Shown here: one piece after another, positions 18,082 through 63,179 of the stretch
How positions within the stretch are numbered: position 1 is the stretch's first letter
How the letters are laid out: every line of letters starts with the position of its first letter
Sequence record: PZ445451.1
From: a phage
Direction: 5' to 3' (one strand)
Length of the DNA stretch: 64,000 bases
The notes under the pieces: model-generated
The model's database searches: none
What the model saw: only the letters and a program-made list of their open reading frames with translations
What the model was told of the DNA's origin: nothing
Made by a program: the position numbers and the translations under genes

Positions 18082-18138
18082 ACTCCCTCCGTATTATTAC
18101 TTTAGCATTTTTAGACTAAAAAGTCAAAATGGTTTTAC

Positions 18139-49338: not shown

Positions 49339-49890
49339 ATGCGGATTACTGATAAGTATGTGTTCTTCTTTTCAGCAAAAGATGAATTTAGCAACTGGTA
49401 TCTATCATCTTTTATTGAACCTTTAGCACCCAAGTATAATAATTCTATTACAAGTTCTGTTGAATTTACTTGTGTGGAACAATATATGATGTGGAGAAAA
49501 GCATGTTTGTTTTATGATTACAGTATTGCATCTTCTATTTTAACCGGAGATCTAAGATATACAGGAGAAAAAGAACAAGCATATTATAAGCGACTAGGCA
49601 GATTAGTTAAAGATTATGATGAAGATACCTGGACTTCTTTACGGGAGAAGATTGTCAAACGTGGTTTGTATCTTAAATACACACAAAATGAAGATCTCAA
49701 AAATAAACTTATAGCCTACGCAGATAAGGAGTTCGTAGAGGCAAGCCCCTATGATTCTATTTATGGTATCAAAATGGGGATGTGGGATCGTGATGTGGAA
49801 AATAAGGACTGTTGGAAAGGACAAAATCTTTTAGGAAAATGGCATACAGACCTTGCTGTTTATCTAAAAACACAATCTGATATTTCCTGA
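49339..49890 (+). CDS. NADAR (YbiA-like) domain protein
   Basis: FFFSAKDEFSNWY, CVEQYMMWRKACLF and DSIYGIK...GQNLLGKWHTDL align with the conserved YbiA blocks. Confidence 0.6.
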   Translation: MRITDKYVFFFSAKDEFSNWYLSSFIEPLAPKYNNSITSSVEFTCVEQYMMWRKACLFYDYSIASSILTGDLRYTGEKEQAYYKRLGRLVKDYDEDTWTSLREKIVKRGLYLKYTQNEDLKNKLIAYADKEFVEASPYDSIYGIKMGMWDRDVENKDCWKGQNLLGKWHTDLAVYLKTQSDIS

Positions 49891-50103
49891 TATTTTGAAA
49901 ATTTTTATTTTTATAAAAAGGGGTGTGGGTTTCATGTACGGAAATTCACCCTCTGCACAGTATATCCAGAGTAAGTAGTATTCTACACCCTGTTAATAAA
50001 GTATTTAATTTGTTTGTTGGACTATGGTATCTGATCTTTAAAAGGCATACTATCTCTTAACTACTACTTATAACAAAACAGTAAAATCATTTTTATAAAA
50101 AGG

Positions 50104-50310
50104 ACAAAATTATTTAAAGTTTTTACAGATTTTTGGATACAAATTTTGAAAATGAAAAGTTCAAGTTTGGTCAAAATTATTTAAAGTTTTTGTACGTATT
50201 TCTATCCAGATTTTGAAAATGAAAACTTCAATTTTTTAAAAATTCCCCAGTTTATTTAAAGTTTTTTTGCCTTTTTCCGTAGAAAAATCAAAAATGAAAA
50301 GTTCAATTTC
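50104..50310. repeat. Three AT-rich tandem repeat units of about 65-80 bp
   Basis: Each unit has TATTTAAAGTTTTT (50112, 50177, 50253) and TTTTGAAAATGAAAA(G/C)TTCAA (50144, 50211, about 50290); the latter holds the inverted pair TTGAA...TTCAA. Confidence 0.6.
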
Positions 50311-50326
50311 GTGTTTTTATAGGTGT

Positions 50327-50445
50327 GCGTATGATAATCATTCTCATTTGTAAATGAGAATCATTATCATTTAATTATGTAAGTGATAATCATTCTCAGT
50401 AAGAGAATGAGAATCATTAGCAAATGAGAATTTTTCTCATTTAGA
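50327..50445. promoter_or_regulatory. Cluster of Fur-box-like palindromes
   Basis: GTATGATAATCATTCTCATTT-GTA-AATGAGAATCATTATC near-perfect palindrome; GATAATCATTCTCA...GAGAATGAGAATCATTA; AATGAGAA-TTT-TTCTCATT; 13-15 of 19 identity to GATAATGATAATCATTATC. Confidence 0.45.
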
Positions 50446-50703
50446 GAATAACGCGCAGGGGCGGTGTTTGTCTCGCGCTCCCGTGTCCCCTCGCCATACA
50501 ATAAGAATAGCATAACCAACAACAAAAGCAAGCGATTATTTTTATCTTTACATTTCTTTACAAATTTATTTTAGACGAGCTACCGGCGATCAACCTTCCA
50601 ACCAGTGCCCCCTGGTATGTTAGCCCCGCCTTTACGCCGTGGGGGTGGCGTTTCCTCTTCTGTATGTAAAACAGTATAAGCCCGATCCCTGGGCTTGTCA
50701 AGA

Positions 50704-50970
50704 TTATTTTTTGTTTTCTTGCCAGGAAAGGACACCTAACCAAAAATACATATCGCCCCGCGCCCCTGGCGGGATCTTGCTTTCCCCGCCGCCACTGCAA
50801 GCCCATAAATAACCATCAGCGAACGGATCAAAATGTTCTATCTCTTCCACCTTATGATCGCCCAGGTTGAGAACGGTTTCAATCTTTAAGCCCGTTGCGC
50901 TTGCTACCTGGTGCACCGTGCCGCCTTGCCAGCCCAATGAGTGCATGAGATGTAAAGGAGTATTTGTCAT
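50704..50970 (-). CDS. Hypothetical protein inside GC-rich island (possible moron)
   Basis: 88 aa minus-strand ORF with RBS-like AAAGAAAGGG; surrounding 0.6 kb is visibly more GC-rich than flanks. Confidence 0.4.
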   Translation of the reverse strand: MTNTPLHLMHSLGWQGGTVHQVASATGLKIETVLNLGDHKVEEIEHFDPFADGYLWACSGGGESKIPPGARGDMYFWLGVLSWQENKK

Positions 50971-51078
50971 GGTATCGCCCTTTCTTTGATGTGCGCCCTG
51001 GTTGGCGCGGTAGAAAGATAATAGCCGTTTCCTTTATAGATAGCAAGCAAAAAAGAAATGAAAAAAGATTAAAAATGG

Positions 51079-51107
51079 TTGACGTTACCAGGATAATAAC
51101 ATATTAT
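51079..51107 (+). promoter_or_regulatory. sigma70-like promoter TTGACG-17-TATTAT
   Basis: Good -35/-10 match with 17 bp spacer upstream of the early gene array. Confidence 0.45.
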
Positions 51108-51234
51108 TCATCTTGTCGAGGGGGGCAAGGCACAACGACAATAAATAAAAGGCGGGTGCAATGCAGGACGGGCAAAGGTGAGGATCTCCATAATCCACCG
51201 TCACAATAACATTACTTATAAAAGGTTGATAACG

Positions 51235-51330
51235 ATGATCAAGAAAGAAAACAGCTTGACGGTTGGAACGATTAACGCTATCATTCTAGCCGTTCCATTT
51301 TGGATTGTAGTAGCGGTTGTTATTTTCTAA
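51235..51330 (+). CDS. Small hydrophobic peptide (31 aa), not in ORF track
   Basis: MIKKENSLTVGTINAIILAVPFWIVVAVVIF, one transmembrane helix. Confidence 0.35.
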   Translation: MIKKENSLTVGTINAIILAVPFWIVVAVVIF

Positions 51331-51339
51331 AAAATATTC

Positions 51340-51395
51340 TTGACAACGTTTTTTAATCTGATAAGATGTATCACATAGGGCGGCAATAGTGCCGC
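51340..51395 (+). promoter_or_regulatory. Promoter plus 5' stem-loop unit (PeSL-like)
   Basis: TTGACA 51340-51345, 16 bp spacer, TAAGAT, then CACATAGGGCGGCAATAGTGCCGC hairpin at predicted transcript 5' end. Confidence 0.65.
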
Positions 51396-51419
51396 TCATA
51401 ACAGAAGAGAGAAATAATC

Positions 51420-51692
51420 ATGGCATCATATAGCGCATCAATGATCGTAACGGGCATGACTGGTAAACCTATGCGCGGTGGCGGATCTTTCGCTAACATC
51501 AATATTGATGGGCGTTTATCCCTGGATGCAGCGATCACCGTGGCACGGGAAACATTTAAAAAAGAATGTAATTTCAATAAACAAGATTATCTCGGCTTCG
51601 TTATTGAAAAAACAGCGCGCTTTGTTGATTATAAAAGCCCGAAAATGATCGACACTACACTAAAAGCGCAAGATGTAGCATTTTTGCTTTAA
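51420..51692 (+). CDS. Early protein, unknown function
   Basis: 90 aa ORF downstream of PeSL unit with A/G-rich RBS. Confidence 0.55.
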   Translation: MASYSASMIVTGMTGKPMRGGGSFANINIDGRLSLDAAITVARETFKKECNFNKQDYLGFVIEKTARFVDYKSPKMIDTTLKAQDVAFLL

Positions 51693-55899: not shown

Positions 55900-56082
55900 A
55901 TGAAATTAGAGGAAATAAGCAAGGCACTAGCCCAGGGGCAAAGGTTATGCGCCCGATATCGTGATCAATATGGCTTCATAACTAGCGGCGTGATCCTGGG
56001 GATGGAAGGCAATAAGATTTTTATTGACACGTTGAAAAACGTTGTATATAGTGACAATATAATCTCAATAAAACATATATGA
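55900..56082 (+). CDS. Hypothetical small protein
   Basis: 60 aa ORF after ACAGGAG RBS. Confidence 0.45.
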   Translation: MKLEEISKALAQGQRLCARYRDQYGFITSGVILGMEGNKIFIDTLKNVVYSDNIISIKHI

Positions 56083-59232: not shown

Positions 59233-59290
59233 TTGACACCGATCCCCAATATGTTATTATTTACCACGTAAGCGGGAAATGGTTTCCCGC
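59233..59290 (+). promoter_or_regulatory. Promoter plus 5' stem-loop unit (PeSL-like)
   Basis: TTGACA-16-TATTAT, hairpin GCGGGAAA-TGG-TTTCCCGC 59272-59290. Confidence 0.7.
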
Positions 59291-60477: not shown

Positions 60478-60861
60478 ATGAGCAATATCATCAACCTGGC
60501 AGCGACTGTAAACGGTAAAGATTTTAACGGCGCTGTAGACCGTGATCCTATGTGGTGCTTATCAGTGTTTAAAGGCGACCTGGTTGAAGTTAGAACAACC
60601 GAAGGCTATAGCGATGATTATAAATGCGAGATCCATTTACATAACTGGTACACGGGGAAAACTTATGCGCTGAATCACGCATTTATCGGGAAAATTGAAT
60701 ATCGCGAAATGATCGACGAAGAAACGGGGCAAGATTTTAGCGATTATGTTTATATCCGTTCAGAAACATTAGCCGAACGCTTGATCGAGAAAATGAAAGC
60801 AAAAAATAAAATTAATTTAGCTCATTGGCTTGATATAACAAATGATCCGGCTTACAAGTAA
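60478..60861 (+). CDS. Early protein, unknown function
   Basis: 127 aa ORF, RBS ACGAGGAA. Confidence 0.55.
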   Translation: MSNIINLAATVNGKDFNGAVDRDPMWCLSVFKGDLVEVRTTEGYSDDYKCEIHLHNWYTGKTYALNHAFIGKIEYREMIDEETGQDFSDYVYIRSETLAERLIEKMKAKNKINLAHWLDITNDPAYK

Positions 60862-60876
60862 ATAACATTTCACACC

Positions 60877-60903
60877 AGGGCGCACAAAGCGCCCTTTCTT
60901 TTT
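60877..60903 (+). terminator. Rho-independent terminator AGGGCGC-ACAAA-GCGCCCT + TTCTTTTT
   Basis: 7 bp GC stem and T-rich tail ending the early gene array. Confidence 0.65.
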
Positions 60904-61106
60904 ACCTAAATAAAGATGATAGCTTTTACCTATCAAAAACGTTCACCGAAAAAAGTGAATAGATCGCGGTATCGAGCTAATCAAGGAGCAGATGAACAAC
61001 CATACCATGAAGATCATAAGGCGCTTACAACGTGTTTTAGACCGCTTATTTTTAATTTCTCAATGTAACTATCGGGCAAAAACAGCCTTTTTCTTGTCTT
61101 TCCTCT

Positions 61107-61182
61107 TAAATGATAATCATTCTTATTTATAGCTGATTATTTATGCAATAAACTGCATAATGCAATAATGATAATCATTCTT
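61107..61182. promoter_or_regulatory. Two Fur-box-like sites
   Basis: AAATGATAATCATTCTTA (61108-61125) and AATAATGATAATCATTCTT (61164-61182); the latter matches the Fur consensus at 16 of 19 positions. Confidence 0.45.
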
Positions 61183-61573
61183 AACTTATGACCATCTAAC
61201 CTATAAAATAATAAGTTATCTAACTAAATTAAAACTAATTATCCCACCTTTATTTATAACTTACTTTTACTATCTCATTGATAACCTTATATTAAACAAC
61301 AATAACCAATATAAATCATTACTAAGCTAACTATAATCTATCTAACCCTTAAAACTATAACTATAATCTATCGAATTGTTGCACAAAGTAACTATTAAAT
61401 TGTTAGTAACTTTACTAAATAATTAATATCCTATCTATTTATGATCTAATCTTTACCTTACTATCTATTACCTAAATAACCATTTCATACAGAAATTATT
61501 TCATACAATAACTATAACAAGAAATATAATTCGCAAGCGTATCATTAGCAGCCTATGCCGGACACATAGGCGG

Positions 61574-61719
61574 CTAATAATAACGCAACTACACACCCCA
61601 CATAATAACCATCACCGATAGTTATTATTTGTGCTTATGTAGCTTGCAACAATTGCAAGCGCAACAATATACATGGTATATTGTATCCCTTACATTGTTG
61701 CGGTGCGTTATTATTAGCT
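61574..61719. repeat. Long nested imperfect palindrome
   Basis: Outer arms GCTAATAATAACGC (61574-61587) and GCGTTATTATTAGC (61706-61719); inner CGCAACAATA / CATTGTTGCG; GCTTGCAA-CAA-TTGCAAGC at 61643-61661. Confidence 0.6.
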
Positions 61720-62045
61720 AATGTTTGGAACATTGGCTATAATATAAGCTACATATAATAAGCTATACAATAATAAACATAATGAATAATGACACTGATG
61801 ATCATAATGCGCCACCTTCCAGGGGGCGCTATGTGAACACAAAGAAATCTTTCTTGTCAAGAAAAATATCACCATTATTGCGCAAAATTATTTATATCTG
61901 AACAGATGATTTTTCATACTATTGCCCCCTATAGTATCCCTATTTGTTGTAATGTATTCCCCTATTTGTTGAGCCTACTCTCTTAAAAGCGCAATAAATT
62001 AGAATTATCTTGATTTTTAGGTAGTTTTATAGTATAGAAAATATG

Positions 62046-62064
62046 CAAATGATAATCATTATCA
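62046..62064. promoter_or_regulatory. Fur-box-like site
   Basis: GCAAATGATAATCATTATC matches GATAATGATAATCATTATC at 17 of 19 positions. Confidence 0.5.
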
Positions 62065-62240
62065 GCTATCTTCCACAGGTGGCACTATTTCACGCCAGAT
62101 CATTTCATTTGGCAAGGTGTATATAGATGTTTAGAAATGCCAAGCCATTGATTTACTTAGAATTTATCTGTTTTGTTGTGAGTAGTGCCTTTCTTGCTCA
62201 GAAAATAATCAAAAGTCTTATAAGTCATTGAATGATAATG

Positions 62241-62259
62241 CAAATGATAATTATTCTCA
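62241..62259. promoter_or_regulatory. Fur-box-like site
   Basis: GCAAATGATAATTATTCTC, 15 of 19 match; preceded by another AATGATAAT half-site at 62232-62240. Confidence 0.4.
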
Positions 62260-62380
62260 TTGATATTTGAGGGGGACGGTCGGCAGAAATCGGGGGCGCT
62301 AAAAATCGCGTTAAGCACCTCTCGCAAGCGAGCAGTATTTTGCGGCAAGTTATTGATATTATTGGCTTTACGCTTATGGA

Positions 62381-62490
62381 AAGGGGGTGTGTCGAAATAA
62401 ATCGGGTATACCGGAAAATTTTTGTGGCATAGATATTTATTTGTCTATATTATGTACAAAGGGGTGTGTTAAAAATAATAGGTATATATA
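62381..62490. repeat. Two copies of a roughly 30 bp direct repeat
   Basis: AAAGGGGGTGTGTCGAAATAAATCGGGTATA (62381-62411) and AAAGGGGTGTGTTAAAAATAATAGGTATAT (62459-62488), about 80 percent identical. Confidence 0.5.
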
Positions 62491-62717
62491 GAATAATTGA
62501 TAGGGAAATCCTATACTAATCCCTCCATTAATGATGTTCCTAGGTTGCTGTTCTTGTAACAGATGAAAAGACGCTGTATGATGTGTGGCATGAGACGTAA
62601 ATTTATAAGATGCAAATAATGCTTGCATTGAATAGAAATGTCTGTATAGTGGTTTGCATACCGCGCACGACGCGTTTCCATTTTCAATAAAATGTTAGCA
62701 TTATGGGGAGGTAGAAA

Positions 62718-63179
62718 ATGAGACAACTATCTATACTGGAAGCACATGTGCAATGTGTTGCAGATTATGTCAAAGAACACTCAAGTTTGTTGGATGTAAC
62801 CTGTGCAGTGCAAAATGATGTAGGTATTGTCTGTGTGCGACATATCTTATCTGAAACTCGTTATGAAGTATTTCGTGCCAAGTTGTTTGGATGTGATCAA
62901 GTGCATGTAAACTTCTTGGATTCCAATTTTCGTTATGCTTTAGAAAATATTGATGATTATCTTCCTTGCTCTCCGACCGGATATGTGATGATAGCAGCAA
63001 ATGAAGTAACACCAAACAACAGTGAGCGGGAAACTTTGTTACGGAAGAAAATACGCCAACTGCAAGTGTTGAATGAACTGAAAGAAGAGATTGAAAAAGA
63101 ACTGAAAGAAGATTTTGGTATGCTTCCAAAAGACGCTTTGAAATGGTTTGATGAACTAGGAGAGGAAAGTTATGAATAA
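62718..63179 (+). CDS. Hypothetical protein with C-terminal coiled coil
   Basis: 153 aa ORF after GGGGAGG RBS. Confidence 0.55.
   Translation: MRQLSILEAHVQCVADYVKEHSSLLDVTCAVQNDVGIVCVRHILSETRYEVFRAKLFGCDQVHVNFLDSNFRYALENIDDYLPCSPTGYVMIAANEVTPNNSERETLLRKKIRQLQVLNELKEEIEKELKEDFGMLPKDALKWFDELGEESYE

Follow-up and report, generated by a model that had tools for sequence, protein, structure and literature searches.

Here, we analysed a 64,000-nucleotide stretch of phage DNA (PZ445451.1; hereafter the window, in whose numbering positions are given) that is 100% identical to Escherichia phage PaulScherrer (Bas60, MZ501100.1), a phi92-like Justusliebigvirus. Window positions equal positions of the MZ501100.1 record minus 32675, and the full genome of 150,425 bp was assembled from the record for genome-wide scans. 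Two direct repeats, copies A and B, sit in a 1.85-kb ORF-poor gap between a Gp30.8-like gene, which ends at 60861 and is followed by a terminator (60877-60895), and a gene starting at 62718. Except for the Gp30.8-like domain upstream, Pfam and PHROGs assigned no function to the flanking proteins. The first gene past the repeats (62718-63179) is labelled 'putative DNA-binding protein' in the record, and its homologue in phi92 carries the label 'transcription-repair coupling factor fold'; it gave no Pfam match, and its PHROG matches were solely to families of unknown function. Phages like phi92 and phAPEC8 are common among therapeutic and model coliphages, and more than 130 records carry the terminal region discussed here. 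Its 1.85 kb of non-coding DNA are without annotation in nearly all records, and the homologous region is described merely as 'non-coding' in the rV5 paper.

Genome ends and G-box units

The termini of PaulScherrer were transferred from the phi92 annotation by alignment. A search with 62250-62720 matched phi92 279-701, under the annotated left direct terminal repeat (DTR); the phi92 record gives DTR-L as 1-343 and DTR-R as 148270-148612. Aligned to this 343-bp repeat, the DTR of PaulScherrer comprises 342 bp (61972-62313), which implies that the record of PaulScherrer is permuted and holds the repeat in a single, collapsed copy. It follows from this placement that 60862-61971 is right-end unique DNA, that left-end unique DNA begins at 62314, and that A and B are located 68-190 bp inward from the physical left end, within a terminal region that is conserved and free of ORFs. 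Independently of the phi92 annotation, the BME3 paper reports a 342-bp DTR determined by PhageTerm, and the two ends of the BME3 record coincide with these boundaries.

Both boundaries share the sequence GTTR/AGC, with the slash marking the boundary. The outer (left) one reads CCCTATTTGTTG/AGCCTAC (TTTGTTG/AGCC) and the inner one AAATCGCGTTA/AGCACCT (CGCGTTA/AGCA). Two direct repeats of CCCTATTTGTTG on the plus strand (61938-61971), the only copies in the genome, precede the outer boundary, and the second of them ends exactly there; other lineages have two copies of TGTTGAGC at this place instead. Both boundary motifs are kept in six lineages, 330-345 bp from each other, as seen in the Phapecoctavirus genomes tuntematon, nieznany, phiWec179, BI-EHEC, and TSP7_1, in the Klebsiella phages KP2025 and FKP3, and in Citrobacter phage Tr1. 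GTTR/AGC is thus likely to represent the cut-site motif at both ends of the repeat.

Two records show odd duplications in this region. BME3 (PP239276) holds an extra 415-nt copy of 61972-62385 with N bases, joined to 61556, and the copy joins at the G run of A to the loop of a hairpin. FKP3 (PP895363) has a 317-bp repeat at both record ends and a tandem copy right after AATTGATAGAT. These duplications are probably artefacts of assembly or curation. We regard the two records as unreliable for independent evidence on the ends, and the duplications are a warning for the annotation of ends in this subfamily.

The preliminary description, made from the window alone, had reported a pair of about 80% identical repeats, 78 bp apart and 230-340 bp upstream of the gene at 62718, and such a pair is indeed present. 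Copies A (AAGGGGGTGTGTCGAAATAAATCGG, 62381-62405) and B (AAAGGGGTGTGTTAAAAATAATAGG, 62458-62482) agree at 19 of 25 positions without gaps and at about 23 of 30 with one gap (counted by hand), an identity of about 77%; they start 77 bp apart and occupy the interval from 337 to 228 bp before the ATG at 62718. Both contain the 9-mer GGGGTGTGT, here called the G-box. Three exact copies of it occur in the window, as compared to 0.21 expected, and none of 100 shuffles reached three; the same three copies, all within 880 bp, are the only ones in the 150,425-bp genome. The pattern AAG{4,6}TGTG occurs three times in the genome (0.18 expected).

The repeat pair belongs to a larger set. When the 25-mer of A was compared ungapped with the whole genome, its best matches were B (19/25) and a third, degenerate direct copy, D (62269-62293; 18/25), with the next best at 17, and reciprocally the best match of D across the genome is A (18/25). 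Each of these three units is about 40-45 nt long and consists of a G-box, about 11 A/T-rich bases, GG(G)TATA, and a -10-like hexamer that is placed 19-21 nt past the G-box and whose second base is A and sixth base T (GAAAAT in A, TAGAAT/AATAAT in B, AAAAAT in D). In copy A (62381-62419, plus strand), the G-box AGGGGGTGTGT (62382-62392) is followed by the A/T-rich spacer, GGGTATAC (62404-62411), and GAAAAT (62414-62419). Copy B and the conserved block attached to it (62458-62503, plus strand) begin with the G-box GGGGTGTGT (62461-62469) and continue with TAAAAATAATA, the 3' parts being GGTATATAT (62481-62489), AATAAT (62492-62497), and AATTGATAG (62495-62503). Unit D (62269-62313, plus strand) is composed of GAGGGGGACGGTCGGCAGAAATCGG and then GGGGGCGCTAAAAATCGCGTTA and ends exactly at the inner boundary of the DTR. 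Spacing between the units is irregular, with 112 bp from D to A and 77 bp from A to B.

The third exact G-box, copy C, is inverted (61591-61599, minus strand). It is located 373 bp to the left of the DTR, within the unique DNA of the right end, and contributes to helix 3 and to an internal loop in a folded element described below. It is uncertain whether C belongs to the G-box family, as the helix fixes its GGTGTAGTTG and its G run is missing in Tr1. A G-box with one mismatch (AAGGGGTGTGG) is found at 49918, after a stop codon, and heads a second ORF-poor region. Unit D, the inverted C, the one-mismatch copy at 49918, and the full unit length of about 40-45 nt had escaped the preliminary description.

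Conservation across relatives

All three exact copies of GGGGTGTGT are present in every Justusliebigvirus genome examined, and the variation mostly concerns the length of the G run. Copy A is invariant within the genus except for this length (4-6 G), and the G-box of B shows a few substitutions. Relative to the inner boundary, A lies at about +68/+69 and B at +147 in PaulScherrer. A-type units recur at +68 to +85 in Phapecoctavirus (+82), in KP2025 and FKP3, and in Citrobacter phage Tr1, and a B-type G-box lies at +141 to +160 in four lineages including Phapecoctavirus. The non-coding DNA around the units is, by our reading of the alignments, about 50-60% identical between lineages.

The G-box is not the most constrained part of the unit, as is apparent from the numbers of records that share two adjacent stretches at B. 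A 36-mer containing the G-box of B was found in 56 records, all from Justusliebigvirus, with 32 identical and 24 differing, as compared to 113 records across genera for the adjacent AT-rich 36-mer on its 3' side. The block past the G-box of B, AAAAATAAT.GGTATATAT.G.ATAATTGATAGG, is the most conserved stretch after the boundary, and its AATTGATAG is invariant in all six genomes of the multiple alignment. The distance from A to B, in contrast, changes from 77 bp in Justusliebigvirus to about 59 bp in Phapecoctavirus, and helical phasing is thus not kept. When viral and metagenome contigs were scanned with the boundary pair and the B block, few further sequences were added, and these were close relatives only.

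Downstream genes differ among the relatives while the units hold their distance from the boundary. The 110 bp immediately upstream of the 62718 gene move with that gene and are more than 1 kb from the B unit in Phapecoctavirus. The more distant phage FBKp34 has two G-boxes after a boundary-like ACTA/AGCACCTC, and the next genes converge on them. Units that keep their place at the boundary next to variable genes thus follow the genome end and not a particular gene.

Possible roles in end recognition and transcription

The preliminary description had taken the repeats for binding sites of a transcription factor or for elements of a non-sigma70 promoter class. The elements themselves are real, conserved across genera, and plausibly protein-binding sites, whereas the promoter class found no support. 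The genome-wide motif search proposed along with it covered the 150 kb with the 9-mer (up to one mismatch), a composite of G-box and GGTATA, the B block, and motifs similar to the late promoters of T4 and rV5, and none of them had additional copies in front of genes. The sole extra G-box, at 49918, follows a stop codon. We therefore rejected a genome-wide class of such motifs or promoters.

We also rejected sigma-70 promoters at A and B, as their matches were weak and inconsistent in PaulScherrer and six relatives. A sigma-70 promoter was defined by a TTGACA-like -35 and a TATAAT-like -10 sequence, 16-18 bp apart, scoring above the genomic background. In a position-weight scan, B scored 7.7 (GTGTTA-17-TAGAAT), which is the 99.5th percentile and thus background level, and A remained below the threshold. 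For comparison, the genome has its 99.9th percentile at 10.2, and within 61900-62720 no site exceeded 9.9. A separate promoter scan yielded 13 sites, with 12.8 expected in shuffles. The genome as a whole contains about 40 near-consensus promoters (TTGACA-N16-18-TATAAT-like) with scores of 14-17, many of them just before ORF starts, for example at 56047 before 56079, at 59255 before 59279, and at 18104 before 18081. Among the relatives, B of phiWec179 scores 10.3 (GTGTCA-17-TAGAAT), and tuntematon has TGgGATAAT.

Inspection by eye for the consensus sequences of sigma-54, sigma-32, CRP, DnaA, IHF, Fis, and CsrA gave nothing convincing at the repeats, and our literature search found neither transcriptome nor start-site data for this subfamily. 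An RNA element at A and B was rejected, because the predicted fold of 62314-62717 is not significant (z = -0.2) and the A/B region matched no Rfam family at the gathering threshold; the matches up to E = 10 were all at chance level.

A and B most likely belong to the DNA signals that mark the genome end. More specifically, we tentatively propose that they are protein-binding units of the concatemer junction or terminus region, comparable to the accessory sites of cosB and pac, a proposal made from sequence comparison. D, A, and B would then be three tandem G-box units of a conserved non-coding terminal region in phi92-like phages, and in replicating concatemers all three would come to lie at the junction between successive genomes. 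We infer that the units would be bound by a protein that recognizes their sequence, the most likely candidate being the recognition subunit of the terminase that packages the DNA. This protein would assemble beside the GTTR/AGC cut sites and help to position or license both the cut and the initiation of packaging.

Several observations argue for this end-signal reading. D abuts the cut site, and A and B follow just past the inner boundary. The exact copies are confined to the junction region (three in 150 kb), and their position relative to the boundary is kept regardless of the genes downstream. Both boundaries have the same GTTR/AGC sequence, and the outer one possesses tandem repeats of its own. 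The poor fit to sigma-70 promoters and the lack of RNA structure point in the same direction, as does a similar layout in T7, where, read from its sequence, the short motif ACCTAAAG or CCTAAAG occurs inside the terminal repeat and in unique DNA on both flanks. Placed beside the terminal repeat, the units represent a testable cis element for packaging or earliest transcription, with practical use in phage engineering, in locating true ends in assemblies, and in the design of transducing or packaging-competent constructs. We also considered whether B derives by copying from the DNA immediately preceding the cut site and dropped this idea, because the likeness of that DNA to the 5' half of B was not significant.

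Besides those inside the terminal repeat, T7 has copies between this repeat and the first gene, where A and B are found here. However, T7 has at least 10 close copies of 7-8 bp in one orientation, as opposed to three longer bipartite units 77-112 bp apart and an inverted 9-mer, and the sequences are unrelated. The T7 arrays were reportedly named SRL and SRR in the original T7 sequence paper, and to our knowledge their function is not settled. Repeats recognized by terminase include the R sites of lambda cosB, the hexamer repeats of P1 pac, and the pacL/pacR boxes of SPP1. Like the units described here, these are several short sites, about 50-200 bp from the cut and before the first gene, which may be inverted across the cut; the units lie within the few hundred bp from the end cut site typical of cosB and pac, with the boundary taken from the phi92 annotation. 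The cosB and pac systems differ in generating cohesive ends or packaging by headful and not with exact terminal repeats, and their sequences show no similarity to the putative sites in PaulScherrer.

Other observations fit the end-signal reading less well. The G-box of B is loosely constrained, with the 24 of 56 deviating records and the variable G-run length mentioned above, and the better-conserved AT-rich 3' block is promoter-like ([GA]ATAAT, with TGn in some Phapecoctavirus genomes). A unit length of about 60 bp corresponds to the footprint of RNA polymerase, the spacing of A and B differs between genera, and the one-mismatch G-box at 49918 is near Fur-like boxes, which fits a general regulator better. 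The non-significant likeness between B and the DNA before the cut site also makes for a weak link of the units to that site.

The main alternative, which we consider somewhat less likely, is that D, A, and B instead represent tandem weak or factor-dependent promoters, or operators, for the first rightward transcription unit at the left end. The G-box, at about -35 to -44, would then serve as activator or repressor site, and GAAAAT and TAGAAT/AATAAT as -10 sequences. The fixed distance of 19-21 nt between G-box and hexamer in each unit, the higher score of B in phiWec179, the TGgGATAAT of tuntematon, and a conserved B block of about polymerase-footprint size are consistent with this possibility. 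Moreover, a gene starts at most about 215 nt past the B block in VivaForever/PATM, alia, tuntematon, Tr1, and KP2025, the exceptions being FBKp34 and FKP3, whose record is rearranged here, and the outlying G-box at 49918 heads another control-like region. The score of only about 7.7 in PaulScherrer and the lack of a consistent -35 sequence across lineages argue against promoters, all the more as the phage uses near-perfect TTGACA-N17-TATAAT elsewhere and has no copies of the units upstream of other genes. In addition, the 62718 gene has its own portable upstream segment with TTGCAT-16-TATAGT, the genes downstream in FBKp34 face the opposite way, and the notional transcription start of D is the DNA end itself.

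Known phages offer two precedents for a transcriptional role. T7 has three tandem early promoters, A1, A2, and A3, between the terminal repeat and the first gene; like the units, they are elements spaced by about 125 bp just inside the left terminal repeat. They are strong sigma-70 promoters, however, whereas A, B, and D match the consensus poorly. Activator-dependent promoters, such as the cII-dependent promoters of lambda, the C-dependent late promoters of Mu, and the MotA-dependent middle promoters of T4, resemble the units in that a specific upstream box replaces a poor -35 sequence while an acceptable -10 is kept. These sets are located upstream of the genes they control, whereas the G-boxes occur only in two ORF-poor regions, with no known activator. 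The promoter or operator reading and the end-signal reading are not mutually exclusive, and concatemer processing in T7 depends on transcription signals at the junction.

A structured element and other features of the ORF-poor regions

Right-end unique DNA contains a five-helix single-strand structure of about 180 nt (61541-61721), identified by folding and covariation, which encompasses copy C. It folds far better than shuffled sequence on either strand, with z-scores of -7.9 (minus) and -6.1 (plus). A set of 54 base pairs is kept across eight sequences from six lineages, and in a six-sequence alignment 99.1% of cells are paired. Compensatory changes were found at 11-14 pairs, none of 500 shuffles was as good, and the pairing collapsed when partners were slid by 1-3 columns. 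Three invariant G-U pairs and several variable ones become A-C mismatches on the plus strand. The minus strand, in the form of RNA or single-stranded DNA, is therefore the likely functional one. Within the element, GCTTGCAA-N3-TTGCAAGC constitutes a perfect palindrome that competes with the covarying helices. The element has no match in Rfam, occurs in 133 phage records, and is without annotation in most among the records listed. It could act as a leftward non-coding RNA or as a single-stranded DNA signal for priming or for duplication of the terminal repeat.

An unlikely but more comprehensive proposal is that the G-box units and the 180-nt structure together constitute an undescribed end-recognition region of the Stephanstirmvirinae, in which a leftward RNA or the displaced strand would cooperate with the G-boxes in duplex DNA. 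Their joint role would be in duplicating or cutting the terminal repeat or in priming replication at the end, loosely like the packaging RNA of phi29 or single-strand initiation signals.

Next to the structured element, 450 bp (61100-61550) have a GC content of 22-23% and, on the plus strand, far more C than G (GC skew -0.56). Around the outer DTR boundary, runs of at least four G change from one strand to the other, and 5 of the 36 runs of at least five G or C in the genome fall within 61822-62383. The second ORF-poor region, 49890-51420, is 1.5 kb long, has the highest density of G/C runs of the genome, and includes five Fur-like boxes and a GC-rich stretch. At 50100-50320 it carries three or four iteron-like repeats of about 60 nt, TTATTTAAAGTTTTT...GATTTTGAAAATGAAAAGTTCAA. 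This region is a candidate replication origin or control region.

We regard it as improbable that D, A, and B themselves serve an initiator as iteron-like sites or contribute to an origin or priming zone at the genome end, together with the 22%-GC stretch at 61100-61550 and the strand-specific hairpin cluster. Iterons of an origin would be expected as at least three nearly identical direct repeats, regularly spaced and beside an AT-rich unwinding region and an initiator gene. Direct repeats near a very AT-rich stretch, a minimum of the cumulative GC skew near 62000, and a conserved structure favoured on one strand would suit such a zone, and such a one-strand structure may resemble single-strand initiation signals. 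However, the more typical iteron-like repeats are found in the ORF-poor region at 50100-50460, the phage is without a known initiator gene, and GC skew tracks the direction of transcription in this genome. The three units are degenerate, their spacing of 112 and 77 bp is not kept among relatives, and the AT-rich stretch is 700 bp off. Similarly, we give little credence to the idea that A and B have no function of their own and are leftovers of local duplication at a recombination-prone end, linked to conserved blocks: G-run length varies, the G-box of B is substituted within the genus, and the FKP3 and BME3 records contain duplications in the region, but the units are kept at similar positions within non-coding DNA of such low identity.

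Fur-box-like sites (E. coli consensus GATAATGATAATCATTATC) were found only in the two ORF-poor regions, at 61106, 61164, 62045, and 62240 and at 50327-50441. Six boxes in the genome have at most three mismatches, with 0.27 expected, and the best of them, at 62045 in the terminal repeat, matches at 17 of 19 positions. Two of the boxes fall within the terminal repeat, where each strand has weak promoter-like sites that overlap them, and these two are kept in Phapecoctavirus. The Fur-like boxes may be sites for host Fur or operators of a phage repressor; our search of the literature found no report of Fur boxes in such phages. Both these boxes and the structured element in the same region are worth separate study.

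The terminal repeat also contains the sequence ATCTGTT (62166-62172), which is identical to the class II pause signal of T7. This match is probably a coincidence, as it is not conserved in Phapecoctavirus and the phage is without a T7-type polymerase.
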